From the NCBI GenBank assembly GCA_003144275.1, contig NJBF01000010.1, forward strand, positions 1 to 32,000: 32,000 nt of DNA, in the 5' to 3' direction. The notes below the pieces were generated by a model, which saw only the letters and a list, made by a program, of their open reading frames with translations, was not told the DNA's origin and did no database searches. This document shows, piece after piece, positions 2,854 to 15,001 of the stretch. The DNA comes from Candidatus Heimdallarchaeota archaeon B3_Heim (lineage in GTDB: Archaea; Asgardarchaeota; Heimdallarchaeia; Hodarchaeales; Hodarchaeaceae). The translations under genes and the position numbers were made by a program. Positions within the stretch are counted from its first letter, which is position 1, and every line of letters starts with the position of its first letter.

Positions 2854-3813
2854 TCAAGAAGTGTAAAATTGAGACAGAACTTCCTGTGGGAGCTCTCCCT
2901 GAAGGACTAAGTATGTTTTATTCGCGAAACGGCTTAGAAGTTTGTTTTTCGTCTGAGTTATAATATTGAACCAAAAGGAGGGTAAAATGGAACTAGCGTA
3001 AAAAGAAGATAATTGGTCAATATAAGTTGGATTGTTTAACAATGAATTGTTATCATCAAAATCCATTTTTATTTGCTTAATCAGCCAAAGAGCAGCAATA
3101 GAAAATACCAATTGTGCATTTTCAATAGCTAGTTGCAATCCCACAGGACTCCAAACAAGCCAATTAAGAACCGAATTGAGAGATTTTCCTATCTCTTCAT
3201 CCTTTATTATACCTATAACTGTTTCATGTATAGATGGAAAAAATTGAGAAAAAGTGGAAAGAGTAACATCTGTCACAGCCTTCATCAAGAAATGGTCTTC
3301 AGAAGTGTGACGATAAAATTCTGTTTGCTCCCGTACTCGTGATGAGGGAATGTTAATGTAAGGATTATTTTTATCTATTTCTTCTCCCCAGTACACGTCG
3401 AAATGATTGCTAGTCTTGAGTAGAAGCCGTTCAACGGAGGAATTAGTGATGTTTGAATTTTTTGTTGAGTACCATTGAAAGCCTTTTCCCCGACAGGGAT
3501 GAATAGATACTAGAGTATCACTCTGGTTGAATCGCCAAAATATTAAAGGATAAATTAGGCATGTGAGAGGTTTAAGTGATGTGGTATGAAGTTGACAATG
3601 TCCTCCCTTGGTCAAGAACGGACATGAATTCCCACGAAGAATTATATCCCCATCTTCTGTGGATTGCAGGTAATACTGGTATTCTGGATATTCTTTAGAT
3701 AAATGATATTTTTCTGATCTACAAAGAGGCAGATTAAACTCAGTGGCACAGCATTTCATATGGCAGTCCGCGCATGTGTACCTGGTATATTCTGAAAAGC
3801 CTCTAATCAACAA
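2854..3813 (-). CDS. YkgJ-family cysteine-cluster (Zn/Fe-chelating) protein with C-terminal extension
   Basis: CADCHMKCC...CPFL...HCQLH...KPLTCLIYP...PC pattern; TTG start uncertain. Confidence 0.8.
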   Translation of the reverse strand: MLIRGFSEYTRYTCADCHMKCCATEFNLPLCRSEKYHLSKEYPEYQYYLQSTEDGDIILRGNSCPFLTKGGHCQLHTTSLKPLTCLIYPLIFWRFNQSDTLVSIHPCRGKGFQWYSTKNSNITNSSVERLLLKTSNHFDVYWGEEIDKNNPYINIPSSRVREQTEFYRHTSEDHFLMKAVTDVTLSTFSQFFPSIHETVIGIIKDEEIGKSLNSVLNWLVWSPVGLQLAIENAQLVFSIAALWLIKQIKMDFDDNNSLLNNPTYIDQLSSFYASSILPSFWFNIITQTKNKLLSRFANKTYLVLQGELPQEVLSQFYTS

Positions 3814-3954: not shown

Positions 3955-3990
3955 TGATTCGTCAGACGATTCATAAAATTATATTTAAAG
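3955..3990 (+). promoter_or_regulatory. candidate operator palindrome abutting a TATA-like element upstream of the BMC cluster
   Basis: TGATTCGTC-A-GACGATTCA (3955-3973, 8 of 9 pairs) directly followed by TAAAATTATATTTAAAG, about 60-70 nt before the ATG at 4047. Confidence 0.35.
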
Positions 3991-4046
3991 AGTGATAGTT
4001 TCACCTTTTGCTACTGAAATCTAAGTTGAAATAAAAAGGCCTTACA

Positions 4047-5903
4047 ATGATTGAAGAACATAGCCACAAATCAACAGGACTTCGTGGTGTTGAGGTTGCG
4101 GACACAAATATTTGCCTGATTGAAGGAGATAAAGGAAATCTTTTCATCCGAGGTTATGATATCAAAGATTTAGCAAAGAATTCAACTTACGAAGAAGTAG
4201 TATACTTACTTCTTTTTGGAAATTTACCTTCTTTTGATCAACTGAAATCTCTTCAAAACACAATTAGGTCAAATCAAGATCTACCTGCGGAATTGATTAC
4301 TCATCTACAGAAAACCACAAAAAATACGCCTTCGATGAGTGTACTTCAGTCATCCCTAGCCCTCTTAGCTGGTTATGATACTGAAGTTGAAAAAGAAACA
4401 AAAGAATCTAATCGCAATATTGCTATTAGGATTATTTCTCTATTACCTATAATTGTTACAGCATGGGAACGAATTAGGAATAATAAAGAACCAATATCTC
4501 CCAATAAGAATCTTTCTTATGCGGCGAATTTCCTGTATATGCTAAATGGAGAAATGCCAACAAAAGAAGAGGCGAGAATATTTGATGTATCGCTAATACT
4601 TCATGCCGAGCATTCTTTCAATGCATCGACATTTACTGCCAGAGTAATCGCCTCCACAGGAGCCGATCTCTATGCTTCAATTTCAGGAGCAATTGGTTCA
4701 TTATCTGGGAAATATCATGGAGGGGCGAATCATCTTGTTTATGAAAGTCTTTTAGAAATAAAAAAGATGTCAAATATTGAAGAATGGGTAAAGAACCGTT
4801 TTGATGATGGTAAACGAGTTATGGGAATGGGTCATGCAATTTATAAGACAATGGATCCGAGAGCTAAGATTCTAAAGGAAATGGCTTCAGAATTGGTGAA
4901 AAAACAAGGTGGATTAGCTCAATGGATGTATGATACAACAAATAAGATGGTTGAAATAACTCAAGCTGAATTTAAAAAACGGAAAAATAGGAGTATATAT
5001 CCAAATGTAGATTTGTACGGTGCTACAGTTTATACAAGTCTTAATATTCCTGTAGAGCTTTTCACTCCAATTTTTACTACGTCTAGAGTAGCTGGATGGG
5101 CTGCACATATTTTAGAAGAGAAATATCCAGAAACACCCACCGTTAAACCTGTGATTTATCGGCCTTCAGCTGACTACATAGGGAGATATTGTGGACCTTT
5201 AGGCTGTGAATTCACACCAATAACTCAGAGAAATGCAACAGCTAATGATAATAACTTAATAAGAAGATTAATTACTCAGGAACTCACTAAAATTCTCGAT
5301 GGTCATTTAATCCCAGTTTCATTATCTGCACGACATATTCATTTGAAGAAAGACGATTTTCATAGACTTTTTGGAGAAAAAAGTGATTTACATCCAATTA
5401 ATTCCTTGTCACAACCAAAAGAATTTGCTTGCGAAGAGGTAGTTGATCTAATTGGTCCAAAACGAGCAATCTATGGAGTTAGAGTCCTGGGTCCTTTCAG
5501 AAATGAAACTCAAATCGAAATTTCTCGTAGTGATGGATATGTTCTAGGAATCAATCCACCCACACGTCAATCAGGTGACTTGGAGGGGACTCCTGGAATT
5601 CATGTCATCGGACCGAAAGGAGCAATCAATTTAGAAAAGGGAGTTATATGCGCCGCACGACACATTCATATGTCACCAAAGGAAGCACAGAAACTAAACA
5701 TGTCTGATAAGCAAATGGTTGCGATTAAATTTTCTGGAACACGTGCTGGTATATTAGATGAAGCTATGACTAGAGTTCATCCTGATTACACTTTGGAACT
5801 ACATTTAGATCTAGATGAGGGTAATGCCCTCGCATTGAAAACAGGAGATATGGGAACGATCATTTCAGATTTTGAAAAGGAGTCATATTCCCCGTTCAGG
5901 TGA
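4047..5903 (+). CDS. citrate (or 2-methylcitrate) synthase fused to PduL-type phosphate acyltransferase
   Basis: N-part: GLRGV, HAEHSFNASTFTARV, HGGAN, GMGHAIYK..DPRA, PNVD, SRVAGWAAH. C-part from about 5310: IPVSLSARHIHL, LSQPKEF, TQIEISRSD, SGDLEGTPG, ARHIHM, HLDLDEGNA. Confidence 0.92.
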   Translation: MIEEHSHKSTGLRGVEVADTNICLIEGDKGNLFIRGYDIKDLAKNSTYEEVVYLLLFGNLPSFDQLKSLQNTIRSNQDLPAELITHLQKTTKNTPSMSVLQSSLALLAGYDTEVEKETKESNRNIAIRIISLLPIIVTAWERIRNNKEPISPNKNLSYAANFLYMLNGEMPTKEEARIFDVSLILHAEHSFNASTFTARVIASTGADLYASISGAIGSLSGKYHGGANHLVYESLLEIKKMSNIEEWVKNRFDDGKRVMGMGHAIYKTMDPRAKILKEMASELVKKQGGLAQWMYDTTNKMVEITQAEFKKRKNRSIYPNVDLYGATVYTSLNIPVELFTPIFTTSRVAGWAAHILEEKYPETPTVKPVIYRPSADYIGRYCGPLGCEFTPITQRNATANDNNLIRRLITQELTKILDGHLIPVSLSARHIHLKKDDFHRLFGEKSDLHPINSLSQPKEFACEEVVDLIGPKRAIYGVRVLGPFRNETQIEISRSDGYVLGINPPTRQSGDLEGTPGIHVIGPKGAINLEKGVICAARHIHMSPKEAQKLNMSDKQMVAIKFSGTRAGILDEAMTRVHPDYTLELHLDLDEGNALALKTGDMGTIISDFEKESYSPFR

Positions 5904-5907
5904 TATT

Positions 5908-6219
5908 ATGGATGCCTTAGGTTTCATGGAAACATGCGGTCGTATTGGAGCAATTATAGCCACGGACACGGCATTGAAAGCAGCGGATGTGAATTTAATA
6001 TCATTAAAACGAGTTTCTGGTGGTTTAGTCATAGTGATCATTGAAGGAGAAGTCGCTGCGGTTCACGAAGCAATCAGCGCAGCAAAAAATCAATTACGTC
6101 AAATTTCCTGTGGATTACTAACCAATGTTATTCCACGGCCAGATGAAGTGACAGTTGAACTCATTGAAAAATTCAGAATGCGTACCCCAAGTGTAAAGGA
6201 AGATCCTGGTAGAGATTGA
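5908..6219 (+). CDS. BMC-H shell hexamer protein
   Basis: MDALGFMETCG...DTALKAADV...EGEVAAV...VIPRP; start moved from 5872 to ATG 5908, which has AGGTGA at 5898-5903. Confidence 0.92.
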   Translation: MDALGFMETCGRIGAIIATDTALKAADVNLISLKRVSGGLVIVIIEGEVAAVHEAISAAKNQLRQISCGLLTNVIPRPDEVTVELIEKFRMRTPSVKEDPGRD

Positions 6220-6229
6220 CTAGAAGGTA

Positions 6230-6955
6230 ATGGTTATGGAAGAGAAAGAACTCGAATCACTTGTCACACAACAAGTAAGGAGCGCTCTCGGTAGTAACCA
6301 GAAACTAGGCCCCTATAATGTATTGGGTATTTTAACACATATGGGTCAAGGGTTGGAAGATTTATTTGAAGCTCTTATCAGGTTAGCTCAAAAAAACATG
6401 AATATTCTGATATGGACTAAAAAAGAAGTTAATGAAGCTTTGGAACTCACATCACGAGCCAGTTCAATTCCTACTATGGATATTATTGTCAATTCAACTG
6501 GAGATTTCTGTTTAAGCTTTTATAATGATCTCGAATCTATCATGTATGGTGCTTTTAGTTTTGAAATCGCAAACAAAGTTACTCTTTTAGAAGATTCGAA
6601 TTCAACTGTTAATTTATTACTCCAAGGATTATTATCTAAAATTCCAGTCTATATAGTTACACCATTTCCTCCAACAGATTTAACATTTGATTATGGTCCC
6701 TCAGGCATGCTAACGAATGAATTAAGTAAACGATTGTCTTTTCTAATAGAAATGGGATTTAGATTGGTTAATGTTGAAGATTTAGCTGATCAATTTGTGA
6801 AGCATACACCAGCTGTGCCAAATTTAATAACAGAAGACTATTTGGAAGGTTTAAAAGGAAAAAAACACGAAATATTTGTACCACATTCTACAATCATAAC
6901 ACCCTTAGCCCAAGAAAGGGCCAATACTCTTGATATTAAAATTATAAAGATTTAG
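6230..6955 (+). CDS. BMC-associated flavoprotein-like protein with N-terminal encapsulation peptide
   Basis: N-terminal amphipathic ELESLVTQQVRSAL; degenerate HFCD/flavoprotein-like core (IANKVTLL...LLQGLLSKIPVYIV); C-terminal LITED...IITPLAQERANTLDIKI motif of the kind seen in BMC-locus accessory proteins. Confidence 0.6.
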   Translation: MVMEEKELESLVTQQVRSALGSNQKLGPYNVLGILTHMGQGLEDLFEALIRLAQKNMNILIWTKKEVNEALELTSRASSIPTMDIIVNSTGDFCLSFYNDLESIMYGAFSFEIANKVTLLEDSNSTVNLLLQGLLSKIPVYIVTPFPPTDLTFDYGPSGMLTNELSKRLSFLIEMGFRLVNVEDLADQFVKHTPAVPNLITEDYLEGLKGKKHEIFVPHSTIITPLAQERANTLDIKIIKI

Positions 6956-6966
6956 GTGATAAAAAC

Positions 6967-7257
6967 ATGAAAGTATGTAAAGTCATTGGAAATGTAGTAA
7001 GCACTGAGAAAGATGAAGGGATTAAAGGTTTCAAACTCCTTATTGTCGAACCAGTGGATATGGTCGATCTGAAACCTGAGAGTGCTCCATTTGTAGCAAT
7101 CGATGCAGTAGGCGCGGGAGAGGATGAAGTTGTCTTAGTTGTTACTGGGAGTTCTTCTCGTTTAACTGCAATGACAAAAGATCGTCCAACTGATGCAACT
7201 ATTCAAGCAATAATTGATTTTATTCAAATAAAAGGAAAAGAAACGTATAGAAAATAA
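6967..7257 (+). CDS. BMC-P shell pentamer (EutN/CcmL family)
   Basis: MKVCKVIGNVVSTEK, AIDAVGAGEDEVVLVVTGSSSR, DATIQAIID; SD AGGTGA at 6954-6959. Confidence 0.95.
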   Translation: MKVCKVIGNVVSTEKDEGIKGFKLLIVEPVDMVDLKPESAPFVAIDAVGAGEDEVVLVVTGSSSRLTAMTKDRPTDATIQAIIDFIQIKGKETYRK

Positions 7258-7307
7258 TATTTTAAGTAATTCAATTAATATAATCTCATATAAGCGAAGG
7301 TAATTAA

Positions 7308-8735
7308 ATGACATATGATGAACAACAAATTGCCAAGATTGTCAATACTGTTGTGCAAAAAATACGCGCATACCAAGTCTATTCAGGTTTAGAAGATCTC
7401 CCCGCGATTGCTGGGGGAGGTATCTTTCAGGATATAGAACAAGCGATTGAAGCGGCAGAGAATAGTCAAATTACGCTAATGGCTCTCTCACTTGAAGAAC
7501 GTAAAGAGATTATTCAATCAATGCGCGAAACAGCGATTAAGCACTCTCGCTATCTAGCTGAATTAGCAATTCAAGAAACTAATCTTGGTCGATTAGAAGA
7601 TAAAGTTGCAAAAAATCTATTATGTGCACGTAAAACCCCAGGCCTAGAAGATTTGGTACCAAACACGTGGACAGGAGATAAGGGATTGACTCTTGTAGAG
7701 ATGGCTCCATACGGTGTAATTGGCTCCATAACACCCTCTACAAATCCAACTGCTACAGTAATCAATAATGGAATATCAATAGTCACGGCTGGAAATAGTG
7801 TCGTTTTTAATCCTCATCCTTCAGCGAAACGAGCAAGTAATGAAGCGGTTAGGTTATTAAATAGGGCTATTCTTGAAGCTGGAGGTCCAGAAAACGTACT
7901 AACATCAACAGTTTCTCCTTCAATAAAATCAGCTCAAATTCTTATGAAACATAAGAAGATACGGTGTCTTGTTGTGACGGGTGGAAGCGCAGTAGTAAAG
8001 GCCGCAATGCAATCTGGTAAGAAAGCAATATGTGCAGGGCCGGGAAATCCTCCTGTAATAGTTGATGATACTGCAGATATTCAAAAAGCCGCAAGAGGCA
8101 TAGTAGAGGGAGCAAGTTTTGATAACAACATTGTTTGTCTCGTAGAAAAAGAAGTTTTCGCATTTGATTCCATTACTGATCGGTTGAAAAGCGAAATGAA
8201 GCATTATGGTGCATATGAAATAACTGGAGATCAGATAAAACAATTGGAAAATCTTGTCTTCACAGGGAAAAAGGGAAGATTTCCAATTGTTAATAGGGAT
8301 TTCATAGGTAAGGATGCAAAAGTTCTTCTTGAGGGAATAGGCATTCAGGTTGGTGACAATATACGACTAATTATTGCAGAAGTTCCTGATGACGAGCATC
8401 CCTTTGTAATATCAGAAATGCTAATGCCTGTTTTACCAATAGTACGAGTCAAAACAATAGAAGAAGCTTTACAAAAAGCGAAAAAGGCAGAACATGGATT
8501 TAAGCATACAGCTATGATGTGGAGTGATTCTGTAGGAAATATGAGTCTTGTGGCAAAAAATATTGAAACAACAATTTTTGTGAAAAATGCTCCTTCGCTT
8601 GCAGGGATCGGTTTTGGAGGAGAGGGGTATACTACAATGACGATAGCTGGTCCTACAGGTGAAGGACTTACATCGGCAAAAACATTTACACGTCAGAGAA
8701 GATGTGTGCTTGTAGACGCGTTTAGAATAATTTAG
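7308..8735 (+). CDS. CoA-acylating aldehyde dehydrogenase (EutE/PduP family) with N-terminal encapsulation peptide
   Basis: PYGVIGSITPSTNP, GNSVVFNPHP, VTGG, AGPGNPP, FDNNIVCLVEKE (catalytic Cys), EMLMPVLP, IAGPTGEGLTSAKTFTRQRRC. Confidence 0.95.
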   Translation: MTYDEQQIAKIVNTVVQKIRAYQVYSGLEDLPAIAGGGIFQDIEQAIEAAENSQITLMALSLEERKEIIQSMRETAIKHSRYLAELAIQETNLGRLEDKVAKNLLCARKTPGLEDLVPNTWTGDKGLTLVEMAPYGVIGSITPSTNPTATVINNGISIVTAGNSVVFNPHPSAKRASNEAVRLLNRAILEAGGPENVLTSTVSPSIKSAQILMKHKKIRCLVVTGGSAVVKAAMQSGKKAICAGPGNPPVIVDDTADIQKAARGIVEGASFDNNIVCLVEKEVFAFDSITDRLKSEMKHYGAYEITGDQIKQLENLVFTGKKGRFPIVNRDFIGKDAKVLLEGIGIQVGDNIRLIIAEVPDDEHPFVISEMLMPVLPIVRVKTIEEALQKAKKAEHGFKHTAMMWSDSVGNMSLVAKNIETTIFVKNAPSLAGIGFGGEGYTTMTIAGPTGEGLTSAKTFTRQRRCVLVDAFRII

Positions 8736-8759
8736 GATAATGAAAAGAGGCAGACTTAG

Positions 8760-10085
8760 TTGAGTTCTGATATCGCAGAGATGGCACGCAGTTCCGGTAT
8801 AGTCGGAGCAGGTGGAGCTGGTTTTCCTACCCATGTGAAACTTTCTGCGAAGGTAGATACTTACATTGTCAATGCGGCTGAATGTGAACCTCTCTTAAGA
8901 GTTGATCAACAATTAATGCAGAAATATCCAGAAAAGTTGATAACTGGATTACAACTAGGGATGAAAGCCACAGGGGCAAAAAGAGGTATCATTGCTATAA
9001 AAAGAAAATATAAGTCTGCAATTAAAAAGGTAAAGCAAGCTATCAAAACTGATTCGCGTCTAGAGATTTTTCTATTAGAGGATGTATATCCTGCTGGAGA
9101 TGAGCACGTTCTCGTTTATGAAGCTTTAGGAAAGACAATTCCTGAAAGTGGACTTCCTCTCGATATAGGGGCTGTGGTGAATAATGTTTATACATTAATA
9201 AATCTTGCTGATGCCTCTGAAGGAAAATCGATAGTTTCACGATATGTTACTGTCACAGGTGCAGTAAAAAAACCTGTAACTATGGATTTCCCAATTGGTA
9301 CCTCGATCTTGGATACTATCAAAGCAGCAGGTGGAGCAACGATCGATAATTTTGAAGTATTGATTAATGGACCAATGATGGGAAGTCTTATTGACCCTAA
9401 AAAGCCTATAACAAAGTTAACTTCAGGAGTAATCGTTTTACCAGAGGATCATTTTGTTATTCGAATGAAAAATGAACGTATCTCCTCAAAGGTCATTGTT
9501 ACCAAGGCAGCTTGCATACGCTGCCAGTTGTGCACAGAAGTATGCCCACGATTTCTCCTAGGTCATCAATTATATCCCGATAAGGTCATGCGAGGGATTG
9601 CATGGGGAGCTCCAGAGAGACCCGAGTATATGACAGGAACATTCCTCTGTGTGGAATGTGGTGCATGTACATATTATGGCTGTCCCATGGGCTTAGATCC
9701 TTGTAAAATGATGACAGAAGTCAAAGGTCAGTTGAGAGTAGAGGGATTAAAAAATACTCATAATCGAAAAGTCTTATCGATTCATCCTGAGAGGGAATAT
9801 CGAAAACTACCTGTAAAGAGATTAATGTCTAGGTTGGATTTACTCAATTATGACAATGAGTGTCCAATTCGAAAGCGGAAATTACAGATTCGAGAAGTTT
9901 CAATACCTCTCAAACAACATATCGGTGATCCTGCTATTCCCATCGTGAAGGTAGGAGAAACGGTAAAAAAAGGCGTACTCATTGGAAAGATTCCTGATGG
10001 GTCACTTGGCGCGGTAATTCACGCTAGTATAAGTGGAATTATCCGACATATTGGACAAGAAATTGTCATTGAAAAAACAAAATAA
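8760..10085 (+). CDS. pduS: PduS/RnfC-like flavin, 2x[4Fe-4S] oxidoreductase
   Basis: [72 protein letters not shown]; TTG start. Confidence 0.88.
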
Positions 10086-10110
10086 GAAACATACAAATGG
10101 TGAAATAAAA

Positions 10111-10389
10111 ATGGCTAAAGAAGCACTTGGATTAATAGAAACAAAAGGATTAGTTGCGTCTATTGAAGCAGCTGATGCAATGGTGAAAGCTGCGAACGTT
10201 CATTTATTGGGACGTGAAGTTATTGGAGGCGGTTATGTCACTGTGATGGTTAGAGGTGATGTAGGTGCAGTTAAAGCTTCCGTTGAAGCTGGTGCAGTTG
10301 CTGCGCGAAAAATTGGTGAGTTAGCTTCAGCACATGTAATCCCCCGTCCTCATGATGAAGTCGAGAGCATTCTTCCCAAGAAAGGATGA
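10111..10389 (+). CDS. BMC-H shell hexamer protein (PduA/EutM-like, probable major shell protein)
   Basis: [27 protein letters not shown]...[15 protein letters not shown]...HVIPRPH; start moved from 10033 to ATG 10111, which has GGTGA at 10099-10103. Confidence 0.97.
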
Positions 10390-10396
10390 GTGTAAG

Positions 10397-10421
10397 ATTA
10401 GCTGCAGAACGAGCAGCTAAT
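10397..10421 (+). promoter_or_regulatory. intergenic stem-loop after the BMC-H gene
   Basis: ATTAGCTGC-agaacga-GCAGCTAAT, perfect 9-bp stem, no following U-tract. Confidence 0.4.
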
Positions 10422-10466
10422 ATTCACTACTTTCATCTCTGTTAACAATCTTAGAGGTAAAATCAG

Positions 10467-11012
10467 ATGCGTGCAATAGGAGTTCTAGAAACAAATGTAA
10501 TAGCTCGTGGTATATTGAGTGCAGATACAATAGTCAAAACTGCAGATGTAAAGCTATTATTTGCATCACCAGTATGCCCTGGGAAATATCTCATAATTAT
10601 TCAAGGAGCCGTTGCAGCTGTTAAAAGCTCCTTACTTGCTGGAAGTGAAATTGCTGGAGAAACACTAGTAAATTATACAGTAATACCAAATATTCATCCA
10701 GAAGTCTTTCCAGCAATTGCAGGGTCAACTGGTATCGATAAAGTGGGGGCAATAGGAGTGGTTGAAACTTATTCTGCTCCAACAGCTATTATGGTTGGCG
10801 ATGAGGCTGTTAAAAGTGCACAAGTACGACTAATCGAAATTCGGATGAGTCGTGCCATAGGTGGAAAGGCTTTCGTAGTCTTAACAGGAGAAGTCGGTGC
10901 AGTGCGAGCAGCTGTAGATGCTGGTGTTAATCGCGTAAAAGGTGAAGGATTAATATTATCTATGGCAATAATTCCCGCTCCTCATCCAGATTTAGTAAAA
11001 ACTCTCCTATAA
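10467..11012 (+). CDS. pduT: BMC-T tandem-domain shell protein, PduT-like
   Basis: Two BMC domains (AIGVLET...GAVAAV; GAIGVVET...GEVGAV...IPAPH); VCPGKY with Cys37 matching the PduT Fe-S-binding Cys. Confidence 0.9.
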   Translation: MRAIGVLETNVIARGILSADTIVKTADVKLLFASPVCPGKYLIIIQGAVAAVKSSLLAGSEIAGETLVNYTVIPNIHPEVFPAIAGSTGIDKVGAIGVVETYSAPTAIMVGDEAVKSAQVRLIEIRMSRAIGGKAFVVLTGEVGAVRAAVDAGVNRVKGEGLILSMAIIPAPHPDLVKTLL

Positions 11013-11038
11013 AAATAGTTTAAACAAGCTGAAGTCAG

Positions 11039-11497
11039 ATGAAGAAAATAATAATTGGATCCGATCATGGTGGGTTTCATCTTAAGAATGATTTAATGAA
11101 ATTTCTTAAAGGTTTGGGATACGAAGTTTCAGATTATGGGTGCTATTCTACAGACCCTGTTGATTATCCTGACATCGCTTTATTAGTAGCACAAACAGTA
11201 GCTGTCTCGTTGGAATCTTTTGGAATTCTTATTGATGGAACAGGTGTTGCTAGTGCAATTGTGGCAAATAAAATCAAAGGTATAAGAGCAACTCCGTGTA
11301 CTGACGAATTTACTGCCAATTCTGCTCGCGAACATAATAATTCCAATATCCTAACTTTAGGGGCTAGAGTTATTGGTCCTGGGATAGCGCAGAATATTGT
11401 GAAGATTTGGTTAACTACTCACTTTGGTGGGGGAAGACATGAAACAAGAGTGAATAAAATTACTGAGATTGAATTGAAATATCTAAAATCAGCGTGA
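11039..11497 (+). CDS. rpiB: RpiB/LacAB-family sugar-phosphate isomerase
   Basis: GSDHGG, VDYPD, ANKIKGIRA, AREHNNSNILTLGARVIG, FGGGRH; canonical CGTG is DGTG here. Confidence 0.9.
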   Translation: MKKIIIGSDHGGFHLKNDLMKFLKGLGYEVSDYGCYSTDPVDYPDIALLVAQTVAVSLESFGILIDGTGVASAIVANKIKGIRATPCTDEFTANSAREHNNSNILTLGARVIGPGIAQNIVKIWLTTHFGGGRHETRVNKITEIELKYLKSA

Positions 11498-11501
11498 TCT
11501 T

Positions 11502-12056
11502 ATGAAACTTGGTAAAGTAATAGGAAATGTAGTTGCTACAACAAAAGACCCGGGTCTCAATACTTTAAGGCTTTTAGTGGTTCAAGGTTTAGACGATAAC
11601 CTACAACCTCTTGGAAATCCATATGTTGCAGCAGACGGAATTGAAACAGCTGGTCCAGGAGATATCGTCTATGTTGTCAGTAAAAAAGAAGCGGCAATTG
11701 TATTTCCAAAAGAACTAGTTCCAATCGATGAGTGTATTGTCGGATATGTAGAGGAATATTACGTTACGAAAAGCGCAAAACGGAAGCCACAGAAGATACA
11801 AACGAGGAAATCACCTCCACCAACAATTAAACCTCTTGACGAAATTCCCGAAATAAAATCTGACGAAATTCCAGTAGAAACTACGGCCAAACCTATCCCT
11901 AAAACTAAGATAATACCAACAGAAGTAGAAGAGATAACGAAACCAATACCTAAATCAAGGACTAGAACAAAACCTAGATCAAAAGCAACTAGGACAAAAA
12001 AGACAAGAAAAATTAAAGAAAAACAACCTACTTCAAAAGGAAGTGAATCAGAATGA
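11502..12056 (+). CDS. BMC-P shell pentamer with 96-aa Lys/Arg/Pro-rich C-terminal tail
   Basis: MKLGKVIGNVVATTK...AADGIETAGPGDIV...IDECIVGYVE (residues 1-88), then a low-complexity tail. Confidence 0.9.
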   Translation: MKLGKVIGNVVATTKDPGLNTLRLLVVQGLDDNLQPLGNPYVAADGIETAGPGDIVYVVSKKEAAIVFPKELVPIDECIVGYVEEYYVTKSAKRKPQKIQTRKSPPPTIKPLDEIPEIKSDEIPVETTAKPIPKTKIIPTEVEEITKPIPKSRTRTKPRSKATRTKKTRKIKEKQPTSKGSESE

Positions 12057-12340
12057 TTCTTGCTAAGGTTATCGGCAATGTTGTCGCTCCGGTAAAGACT
12101 AGAAGTCATGAAAATGGAAAAATTTTGGTAGTCCGTCCGATAGATATGAAAGGACAATTTACTGAACCATCATTTATCGCGATAGATGTAGCAAGAGCTG
12201 GTATAGGGGATTGTGTTCTCATTATTCGAGAAGGAAATTCTATTCGGAATATAATGAAAGATAATCAAGCAGCAGTCGATGCGTTGATAATAGGTGTTGT
12301 TGATTACGTCCAAGTAGACGGTAAGAATAGTGAATTATAA
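12053..12340 (+). CDS. BMC-P shell pentamer (EutN/CcmL family)
   Basis: MILAKVIGNVV, AIDVARAGIGDCVLIIREG, VDALIIGVVD; ATGA overlap with the previous stop. Confidence 0.93.
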   Translation: MILAKVIGNVVAPVKTRSHENGKILVVRPIDMKGQFTEPSFIAIDVARAGIGDCVLIIREGNSIRNIMKDNQAAVDALIIGVVDYVQVDGKNSEL

Positions 12341-12363
12341 ATAGATAAGTGAAGGTGTAGGAA

Positions 12364-13812
12364 ATGAGTAATGAGATGATTCAAAAAATAACTGAAGAAG
12401 TGATGAGAAAATTAAATCAAGAGGATCTCTCCCCGGTCAAACAAACCAATCTAAATATACAGTCTTCCAAGAAGAATCTTAATTATACCATTTCATCTGG
12501 AAAATCAGCATTAATTTTACTTTGTGGAGGAAATAAAGAAATACAGGAAGTCATGCGACAAATCGAAATCATATCTAAAGCGTATACACATACTTACGTC
12601 GTTATGACACATGCAGCAATAAAATTAATCGGGATACCCGATATTAGAAAAGTCTCCGAAGGAGCAACAATTATCACAGAATTTTCTGAAGAGTATTTTG
12701 ACGATATTTTGGGACGGGTTGATGTTATTTATGTACCTATACTATCCTTAAATACAGCAGCAAAAGTTGCACTGTTAAATGCTGATTCTCTAGGAACTAT
12801 TACACTAGTTTTTGGTTTAATGTACGGAAAACCTGTAATTGCTGCTCATAATTCCATTTACTGCTGTCAAATTGAAAAAGAACAAGTACCACCTATTATG
12901 ATTCGACGTATTGAAGGAATTATTGATCAGTTGACATCAATGGGAATAACTATGGTAAATATCCATAGTTTATCAGACCAACAACCTTCCCCTTATACTC
13001 CAACAACACCTGAGCGCTCATATACGGTTGGAACTGCAGGAAAAGATATTGGCTTAGATGGAAAATCACAAGTTGCTGTCAAAGCATTAGTCAATGGAGG
13101 AGCAGCAAGAATAACTTCGGAGACTGGAATCAATGGTTATGACATGGACCTAGCTCAATATATTGATCATACTAATTTACGAGCAGATGCAACAGAGGAT
13201 GAAATTAAGCAGTTGTGTGAAGAAGCAGCTAATTACAAATTTGCGTCAGTTTGTATAAATCCCACAAATGTTTCAAAAGCTGCTAAAATTTTGAAGGGTA
13301 GTTCGGTAAAAGTCTGTACTGTTATAGGTTTTCCTTTAGGTGCGACAACCCCAACTGTTAAGGCAATAGAAACCCGTGATGCAGTAGCAAATGGTGCTGA
13401 GGAGGTAGATATGGTTATTAATGTTGGAGCGTTGAAGTCGGGAAATGACGATCTCGTGCGCGAGGATATCGAAGCCGTTGTAAATGCTGCTGCTGGGAAG
13501 GCAATTGTTAAAGTTATCCTTGAAACTGCTCTATTAACAAAAGAACAAATCGTTAAAGGTAGCTTATTCACAAAATTGAGCGGGGCCGACTTTGTAAAAA
13601 CCTCAACAGGGTTTAGTACAGCAGGAGCTTTAGTCGAGGATATAGCTCTCATGCGAAAGACTGTGGGGCCAGAAATGGGAATAAAGGCTGCTGGAGGGAT
13701 TAGAACACATGAAATTGCAGAAGACATGATTAAAGCAGGCGCAACTCGAATTGGAGCTTCTGCCTCGATAGCTATTGTTAAAGAGACTGATACGAAGTCA
13801 GGTAAGTACTAG
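12364..13812 (+). CDS. deoC: encapsulation peptide + flavoprotein-like domain fused to deoxyribose-phosphate aldolase
   Basis: N: [13 protein letters not shown]; middle: [13 protein letters not shown]...GKPVIAA; C: [55 protein letters not shown]. Confidence 0.93.
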
Positions 13813-13822
13813 AGGGTATTGG

Positions 13823-15001
13823 TTGATTATCCTAACCATTAATTCAGGTTCTTCATCTCTAAAATATTCAATTTACCAAATGGAGAATCGTAAAATTTTA
13901 GCAAAAGGATTAGTGGAAAGAATAGGTCTCTCCAATCCTCATATTTCTCATAATAGCGAAGCTAAAGAGATTAAGGAACAGATAAAGTGTAATAACCATG
14001 AAGATGCCATAAGTTATGTATTAAACTTCTTTAATTTACACGAAGTTGATGCAGTGGCGCATAGGGTAGTACATGGAGGAGAAAGATTTCAGAAAGAGGT
14101 AATCATTGACACAAAGGTTGAATCTGAAATAGAAAACCTTTCTGAATTGGCCCCACTTCATAATCCCGCAAATCTAATAGGAATTCGAGCTTGTCAAAAA
14201 ATGCTTCCAGATATTCCACATGTAGCAATATTTGATACATCTTTTCATAATACTATTCCAGAGTATGCTTTTCGTTATGCAATCCCAGCAAAATGGCATA
14301 TAGAAAAATCCTTTAGAAGATATGGTTTTCATGGTACTTCCGTTGAATTTGTAACAAGTAGAACTATTGAAATTCTAGGATTGGAGAATAGTCGACGGAT
14401 AATTGTATTACATCTTGGAAATGGAGCATCAATAACTGCTGTGCGCAATGGTGAGTCTATTGATACAAGCATGGGCTTAACTCCTCTCGAAGGCCTTATT
14501 ATGGGGACACGTTCAGGGGATATCGATCCAGGTCTTATACTTGCTATGATGCGATCACAGAAAATGTCAGTCGACCAAATAGATCAAGAACTCAACACTA
14601 AGAGTGGCTTGCTAGGAATAACTGGTAAATTCAGAGATATGAGGGAGATTCAGATTAATGCCCAAGAAGGAAACTCTGCAGCACAATTAGCAATCCAGAT
14701 GGCAGTTTATCGGATACAAAAATATATTGGTGCATATTTTGTCGCCTTGGGTGGTCTAGATGCCATTGTATTTACAGGGGGAATAGGGGAAAGGTCTTCT
14801 TATTTCCGAAATTCTATCGTCAAAGGATTAGGGAGTCTGGGTATACTACTAGATCATTCTAAAAATAAAACTTCAGATGGAGAGGAAGAAGAAATAATTT
14901 CTTCTTTAGAATCTAAAACTCAAGTATTAGTAATTCCAACTAATGAAGAATATATGATGGCCTTAAAAACTCTGAAATTGTTGGCAATAGAGAGTAAGTA
15001 A
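13823..15001 (+). CDS. ackA: acetate/propionate kinase
   Basis: INSGSSSLKY, HRVVHGG, APLHNP, FDTSFH, RRYGFHGTS, HLGNGAS, TSMGLTPLEG, FTGGIGE, IPTNEE; start placed at TTG 13823 after GAGGGT. Confidence 0.95.
   Translation: MIILTINSGSSSLKYSIYQMENRKILAKGLVERIGLSNPHISHNSEAKEIKEQIKCNNHEDAISYVLNFFNLHEVDAVAHRVVHGGERFQKEVIIDTKVESEIENLSELAPLHNPANLIGIRACQKMLPDIPHVAIFDTSFHNTIPEYAFRYAIPAKWHIEKSFRRYGFHGTSVEFVTSRTIEILGLENSRRIIVLHLGNGASITAVRNGESIDTSMGLTPLEGLIMGTRSGDIDPGLILAMMRSQKMSVDQIDQELNTKSGLLGITGKFRDMREIQINAQEGNSAAQLAIQMAVYRIQKYIGAYFVALGGLDAIVFTGGIGERSSYFRNSIVKGLGSLGILLDHSKNKTSDGEEEEIISSLESKTQVLVIPTNEEYMMALKTLKLLAIESK

Follow-up and report, generated by a model that had tools for sequence, protein, structure and literature searches.

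The window, a stretch of 32,000 nucleotides, carries at positions 4047–5903 of the forward strand a single open reading frame of 618 codons, which runs from ATG to TGA without an internal stop, as the preliminary description had stated. The predicted protein combines two enzymes. A Pfam search places Citrate_synt (PF00285) at aa 11–373 (E 7e-123) and PTAC/PduL (PF06130) at aa 423–597 (E 7e-69), with a short amphipathic helix resembling an encapsulation peptide (EP) between them, and the same CS-EP-PduL layout is found in orthologues. The fusion gene heads a series of 13 genes in the same orientation at 4047–15001. It is followed by the first shell hexamer gene, BMC-H, identified with Pfam at 5909–6219 (+). 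The ATG of this gene lies 5 nt past the stop codon of the fusion, so the two genes are probably co-transcribed. The remaining part of the type I operon occupies 6230–15001 (+) and was assigned with Pfam and NCBIfam profiles. After the first BMC-H come a DUF protein (241 aa, no Pfam family), a BMC-P, an acylating AldDH and a PduS-like Nuo51/RnfC flavoprotein (NADH dehydrogenase), then a second BMC-H, a BMC-T, RpiB, a BMC-P with a long basic tail and another BMC-P. A flavoprotein-DERA (482 aa, with an N-terminal extension) and acetate kinase close the operon. Judged by its genes, the operon is a complete sugar-phosphate-utilisation (SPU) metabolosome ending in ackA. The closest proteins are named Hodarchaeales or Heimdallarchaeota.

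Both the fusion and its proposed role are already known from the 'archaeal microcompartments' (AMC) of Hodarchaeales described by Du et al. 2025 (bioRxiv 10.1101/2025.11.08.687404, 18 Nov 2025, PMC12747264), who name a CS+PTAC fusion. The full AMC type I gene set is present in the window, at 4047–15001 and in the gene order described: two BMC-H, one BMC-T, three BMC-P (one basic-tailed), DUF, AldDH, MNdh, RPI, Flav-DERA, CS, PTAC and AK. In their account, CS (PF00285) and PTAC (PF06130) offer two CoA-releasing routes, to acetyl-phosphate and ATP or to citrate, the EP is the linker between CS and PTAC, and the fusion occurs 'in some lineages'. The window protein belongs to the same protein family, lies in the same operon and has the same proposed role. 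Nothing essential differs; it is another member, 61–85% identical to the orthologues listed here.

The citrate synthase (CS) domain (aa 11–373; 4077–5165, +) is delimited by Pfam and by alignment to 1IOM and 1VGP, and is modelled by AF2 with pLDDT >90. It scores 410.6 bits with the PF00285 profile against a cut-off of 27, spans profile positions 1–356 of 357, and can be aligned over its full length to the Thermus, Pyrococcus and Sulfolobus enzymes (270–276 bits). The motifs named in the preliminary description are all found: HGGAN at aa 224–228 (nt 4716–4730), GHAIYK at 262–267 and NVD at 320–322, with the arginine motifs DPR at 270–272 and SR at 346–347. The catalytic residues His224, His263 and Asp322, and the oxaloacetate/citrate ligands His189, Arg272, Arg347 and Arg372, all align with 1IOM and 1VGP. 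Every one of them is invariant in the conservation alignment of 25 fused orthologues, which are 61–85% identical. The C-terminal arm of the domain (aa 361–401; 5127–5249, +) contains the invariant Arg372 in a YRP motif and a CGPLGC motif at nt 5190–5207; its confidence in the AF2 monomer model is low. In its score of 270–276 bits and in its His/His/Asp triad and Arg/His ligands the domain resembles the small dimeric type II citrate synthases of archaea and Thermus (1IOM, 1AJ8, 1VGP). However, those are free cytosolic TCA enzymes, whereas the window CS is encoded in a shell operon and fused to PduL. It further differs from them by its sub-clade, which is marked by CGPxGC in the C-terminal arm.

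The best NCBIfam model for the domain is TIGR01800, a type II subfamily that mixes citrate and 2-methylcitrate synthases, and its score of 411.8 bits is just under the cut-off of 421.3. Among the NCBIfam models, no equivalog cut-off is reached by the CS domain. Because the TIGR01800 score is below its cut-off, the acyl-CoA preference is read from the operon context only, where DERA yields acetaldehyde and points to acetyl-CoA as the substrate. The mixed subfamily would also allow a 2-methylcitrate synthase, and a dimeric CS joined to a PduL that oligomerises (PMC4784909) could build networks, so that the domain might be catalytically idle and act as a dimerising scaffold by which PduL is cross-linked within the cargo core. 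We consider both of these very unlikely. The catalytic and substrate-binding residues are all kept down to 61% identity, a conservation that an idle scaffold would not require; propionyl-CoA has its own prpBCD cluster elsewhere in the genome; and the signature enzyme DERA gives acetaldehyde, not propionaldehyde. Scaffolding could nevertheless be an additional role alongside catalysis, as a dimeric CS and an oligomerising PduL in one chain could cross-link cargo.

In the genome as a whole (94% complete, 103 contigs), a search finds three CS-family genes. The second homologue, 383 aa long and 37% identical to the fusion, is flanked by PrpB-like and PrpD genes and is for this reason assigned as a 2-methylcitrate synthase (PrpC). 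The third encodes a 253-aa citryl-CoA-lyase-like protein. There is one PduL, and no classical Pta (PF01515) was found in the 94%-complete genome. By gene content, the genome thus appears to have no canonical citrate synthase and no phosphotransacylase other than the fusion. It also carries aconitase and a gene of the isocitrate-dehydrogenase family. Across the other sampled genomes with an AMC, further CS matches are only PrpC-like or partial.

The PduL/PTAC domain (aa 423–597; 5313–5837, +) is equally well defined, by Pfam and by alignment to 5CUO. It scores 231.5 bits with PF06130 (cut-off 25) and 242.4 bits with NF011652 (cut-off 209), and it aligns over its whole length with R. palustris rPduL (PDB 5CUO) at 175.7 bits. 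The dimetal site of rPduL is formed by His48, His50, Glu109, His157, His159 and His204 (PMC4784909). These Zn ligands map to His430, His432, Glu491, His539, His541 and His586 of the fusion, and all six are invariant in the 25 orthologues. Both HxH motifs that had been noted for PduL are therefore present, each as RHIH, at 429–432 and 538–541. The protein ends in a conserved YSPFR tail (5886–5900, +), recognized from the orthologue alignment and from stand-alone PduLs. It is carried by most Hodarchaeales PduLs and was not seen among the bacterial PduLs retrieved. Bacterial PduL (5CUO; Erbilgin et al. 2016, PMC4784909) has the same six Zn ligands and an EP directly N-terminal of the domain, but the bacterial proteins stand alone with about 190–230 aa, while in the fusion the EP is internal, behind a CS of 400 aa. 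Among the 120 of 263 matches listed, long PduL fusions from outside Hodarchaeales are limited to AckA-PduL(-cNMP-binding) proteins of Syntrophales and Rhodocyclales. In these, too, PduL is joined to an adjacent step in the metabolism of acetyl-CoA. Their partner, acetate kinase, is the next enzyme of the pathway, whereas the CS partner in the window is a competing enzyme.

The inter-domain helix lies at aa 402–417 (5250–5297, +), exactly where an EP-like linker had been proposed. Its assignment draws on the hydrophobic moment, the AF2 model and the split forms of the protein. The highest helical hydrophobic moment of the whole protein, 0.567, is found for the 14-mer at aa 405–418, which overlaps the helix, and the amphipathic pattern is kept across orthologues. 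The AF2 model (mean pLDDT 86.6) consists of two confident domains, at about 20–360 and 421–612, and a poorly ordered segment, 361–420, that carries a lone helix at 401–416. Low-pLDDT stretches of the linker, at 372–382 and 397–400, flank it. The full-length stand-alone Hodarchaeales PduLs recovered (220–228 aa) have a homologous helix at their start, immediately ahead of the first RHxH strand. The N-terminus of the split PduL in one genome, G008, bears a homologous helix as well. The position directly N-terminal of the PduL domain is the usual place of an EP in bacterial PduLs (PMC4784909). Because split and stand-alone PduLs start with the homologous helix, we take the internal EP of the fusion to be, on this homology, PduL's own N-terminal EP, enclosed when a CS gene lying upstream was fused to that of PduL. 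Du et al. 2025 (PMC12747264) report that EP-containing enzymes, CS+PTAC included, are recruited to shells and EP-deletion variants are not, and state that CS+PTAC has an EP. Recruitment was tested there in E. coli, with heterologous GFP fusions and a representative orthologue. Amphipathicity, homology to the EPs of unfused PduLs and these recruitment data all support the EP-like character of the linker.

The fusion is not peculiar to this assembly. The order was sampled with 24 species-representative genomes of Hodarchaeales. PduL is present in 9 of the 24, the BMC shell genes occur together with it in the same 9, and in 8 of the 9 PduL is in one frame of 615–625 aa with CS. A search for the PF00285 + PF06130 architecture, as the preliminary description had suggested, returns 32 protein clusters (609–649 aa, 61–85% identity), all named Hodarchaeales, Heimdallarchaeota or Hodarchaeota. 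The same description had raised the loss of a stop codon between the domains, and no sign of this is found: in two other metagenome runs from cold seeps, contigs cross the junction without gaps, covering 4994–5540 and 4982–5367. One split case exists, in genome G008, where a CS of 402 aa, a spacer of 47 nt and a PduL of 234 aa follow one another. Here about 30 extra codons of real sequence, and not one indel, lie between the conserved parts, so the two genes of G008 are genuinely separate and do not result from an error in a single base. The separate genes of G008 are what could make the fusion look like an assembly or sequencing artefact, with a lost stop codon or a frameshift. The chance of this is practically nil, since the architecture recurs in 8 independent species genomes and in 32 protein clusters from several sources, the contigs of the two other runs bridge the junction, and G008 differs by some 30 real intergenic codons.

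Close relatives of the locus are found in cold-seep and marine sediment metagenomes. The search of sequencing runs gave no run containing at least half of the sampled sequence words. As to expression, three 151-nt contigs of one metatranscriptome run match inside the CS part at 98–99% identity; carry-over of DNA is possible, and they were discounted.

The intact active sites, the SPU operon with its ackA and the same reading in PMC12747264 support the earlier proposal that the protein is a CoA-releasing branch point for acetyl-CoA derived from an aldehyde. From deoxyribose-5-phosphate, DERA would release glyceraldehyde-3-phosphate and acetaldehyde; the latter would be converted into acetyl-CoA by the acylating AldDH. 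The PduL half would then turn acetyl-CoA and phosphate into acetyl-phosphate, from which acetate kinase would make ATP, and the CS half would combine acetyl-CoA with oxaloacetate to give citrate. Free CoA would be regenerated by both halves. A single internal amphipathic helix would bring both activities into the shell at a fixed 1:1 ratio, and the CS route would require oxaloacetate and citrate to pass the shell pores. With a probability of roughly three in four, we read the protein as a bifunctional, microcompartment-targeted enzyme that regenerates CoA inside a deoxyribose-phosphate metabolosome and that arose by read-through from CS into pduL. Of these elements, both activities, the substrate, the position in the lumen in vivo and the way in which the fusion arose are inferred.

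As to location, another reading is conceivable. As the only canonical CS and only phosphotransacylase found in the 94%-complete genome, the protein might not be, or not only be, luminal; it could serve as the general citrate synthase and phosphotransacetylase of the cell, either in the cytosol or at the outer surface of the shell, with the helix mainly a flexible linker or an oligomerisation element. Citrate is presumably needed regardless of DNA degradation, given the aconitase and the isocitrate-dehydrogenase-family gene, and acetate kinase and RPI bound shells without a predicted EP (PMC12747264). Against this, the helix shares homology with the EPs at the N-termini of unfused PduLs and keeps its amphipathic pattern across orthologues, the gene stands first in a shell operon, 5 nt from BMC-H, and in PMC12747264 shell association was lost on deletion of the EP. 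We regard this reading as unlikely.

The direction of the CS reaction can also be questioned. Reversible citrate synthases are known in some anaerobes. Run in the manner of the 'reversed oxidative TCA' cycle, the CS half would cleave imported citrate into oxaloacetate and acetyl-CoA, and PduL would pull the reaction toward acetyl-phosphate and ATP. With consecutive enzymes in one chain, acetyl-CoA would be channelled more readily from CS to PduL, and ackA closes the operon. However, citrate cleavage without ATP is strongly endergonic, acetyl-CoA is already supplied by the AldDH of the operon, and most genomes of the order have ATP-citrate lyase (ACL) for citrate cleavage. In addition, related operons of type II keep CS without PduL and AckA, so that CS there is independent of PduL. 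Taken together, reverse operation has only a very slight probability, and synthesis of citrate by the luminal enzyme is the reading that we follow.

The origin of the CS half was approached with a maximum-likelihood tree of 54 CS sequences, none labelled Myxococcota. A contig scan with peptide patterns of the CS domain, which are poorly conserved, gave three close Hodarchaeota loci and unrelated bacterial CSs, and it served for outgroups only. All AMC-associated CSs, whether fused, split or longer and unfused, form one clade (support 100/97), within which the fused and split forms group together (89/92). The nearest relatives of this clade are stand-alone CSs of about 400 aa. One of them is from a Hodarchaeales genome that lacks the AMC and lies beside sucCD and fumarase; another is from a different Asgard family and lies near an isocitrate-dehydrogenase-family gene and a 2-oxoacid:ferredoxin oxidoreductase. 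The sister relation between the AMC clade and the Hodarchaeales CS of TCA context has moderate support (84/74), and the enclosing clades have 99/96 and 98/84. A pre-existing link between AldDH and CS was considered at an outgroup CS (P0046) and rejected; the neighbouring AldDH is 21% identical to the AMC AldDH and of the non-acylating type.

A related operon, located by way of a protein distantly related to the DUF protein, is arranged in the order PTAC, DUF, P, AldDH, MNdh, T, H, P, TIM, RPI, P, H, DERA and class II aldolase. This PTAC-first operon contains no CS, and a second contig agrees. Its gene order fits the Myxococcota donor type as described in PMC12747264. Two other contigs with DUF relatives are either too short or of the T-dp type without PTAC. 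As the CS groups with stand-alone Asgard CSs and the donor-like operon is without CS, the fusion is probably a chimera, in which a native Asgard CS was placed before an imported bacterial pduL and then fused to it. The event itself would have been read-through from the natively archaeal CS gene into the horizontally acquired bacterial pduL directly downstream.

The operon also occurs in variant forms. In part of the type I operons, CS (496–534 aa) and the PduL that follows it are separate proteins. The separate long CS often consists of an N-terminal EP-like helix, the CS domain, a further EP-like helix and a C-terminal domain of about 45 aa. Type II operons, which have TIM and class II aldolase, keep the long CS and lack both PduL and acetate kinase, and genes for ACL lie immediately upstream of CS. 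In these operons CS is the sole candidate for recycling CoA. ACL is present in 19 of the 24 genomes of the order. In the window genome (103 contigs, 94% complete) ACL (PF16114) was not found, which does not imply that it is absent. The CS-only type II operons that adjoin ACL genes, and the occurrence of ACL in 19 of 24 genomes, suggest that acetyl units may leave the compartment as citrate and may be cleaved again outside. The mitochondrial citrate shuttle, with CS inside and ACL outside, offers an analogy and nothing more: here too, an acetyl unit would leave a CoA-impermeable compartment in the form of citrate. The AMC, however, is a protein shell without a carrier, whereas the mitochondrial shuttle crosses a membrane. 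We therefore put forward only tentatively, as a rather doubtful proposal, the wider picture in which the native Asgard CS is a host addition to a bacterial organelle and, as the only canonical CS of the cell, lets carbon enter the citrate pool by way of the compartment, with CS as sole CoA recycler and re-cleavage by ACL forming a shuttle in type II.

The preliminary description had also held that CS is not a standard BMC component. This is true of bacteria: the survey of bacterial SPU BMCs (PMC11585597) nowhere mentions citrate. Besides PMC12747264, our literature search found no further paper that links citrate synthase to a metabolosome. The main text of PMC12747264 is silent on the origin of the linker EP, the phylogeny of CS, its status as sole canonical CS, the neighbourhood of ATP-citrate lyase and a shuttle. 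What is added here is incremental and computational, namely the origin of the linker EP, the probable chimera, the sole canonical CS and the link between type II operons and ACL. The window adds a member to a described system and is not a discovery of it. The recent discovery of microcompartments in the archaea most closely related to eukaryotes is notable, and citrate synthase as a core cargo is unusual for any metabolosome. If the fusion is indeed a chimera, the only citrate synthase of the cell would be tied to an acquired organelle. If the wider picture holds, a citrate/oxaloacetate shuttle would operate across a protein shell, functionally parallel to the citrate shuttle of mitochondria.

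The citrate synthase (CS) part of the fusion carries a CGPLGC motif in its C-terminal arm (window 5190-5207), which is invariant. The form CGPxGC is common to the stand-alone relatives of the CS sub-clade and is missing in other Asgard and bacterial CSs. The motif may represent a disulfide or a metal site. One of the closest stand-alone relatives is found in G014, a genome of the order that has no microcompartment, and belongs to the group that is sister to the clade of microcompartment CSs. Its gene (L044:9243-10442) adjoins sucC, sucD and a fumarase gene, and shows a single in-frame TAG at a position where Pro is invariant among the fused orthologues. This gene is either a pseudogene or affected by a sequencing error. 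At the other end of the fusion, the PduL domain terminates in a conserved YSPFR tail (window 5886-5900). The same tail closes most of the Hodarchaeales PduLs recovered, both fused and free, and none was seen among the bacterial PduLs retrieved. A different PduL fusion of about 773 aa, which links acetate kinase to PduL and to a cyclic-nucleotide-binding domain, is observed in many Syntrophales and Rhodocyclales (P0127–P0214). Upstream of the fusion gene, an A/T-rich, TATA-like stretch (window 3975-3992) precedes the ATG by about 55–70 nt, within the 233 nt that separate this gene from its divergent neighbour at 2854-3813. This stretch may serve as an archaeal promoter of the microcompartment operon.

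The same genome encodes a second CS homologue, P0122 (C100:28295-29389; L002:1450-2601). It is flanked by a PrpB-like gene and a PrpD gene, and is therefore a 2-methylcitrate synthase. In P0122 the first catalytic His is replaced by Asn (LNGGAN versus HGGAN), while all other CSs have His at this position; the replacement is shared by the P0122 orthologues of three other Hodarchaeales genomes. A citryl-CoA-lyase-like protein of 253 aa (C11:61016-61705; L003:1369-2130) matches NF004869 with 277 bits. Its gene is isolated; the neighbours on its two sides encode a GTPase and a pyridine-nucleotide-disulphide oxidoreductase (PF07992). The Citrate_bind domain of ATP-citrate lyase is present in 19 of the 24 genomes of the order, but none was found in this one. 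In the type II operons (L015:6731-11593 and L016), the head gene encodes a 530-aa CS with two ATP-citrate lyase genes immediately upstream, and both PduL and acetate kinase are missing.

The 241-aa protein without a Pfam family (window 6230-6955) ends in a module of about 45 aa (window 6818-6952), with the pattern LITE followed by ITPLA-x-x-RA-x-x-x-GI-x-I. This module also forms the C-terminal end of the distant relatives of this protein and of the long, unfused microcompartment CSs (P0037, P0039–P0044). The sole similarity found for it, to the E3-binding domain PF02817, is weak (E 0.013). Docking or oligomerisation is a possible role for this module, which the 241-aa protein and the long CSs have in common.
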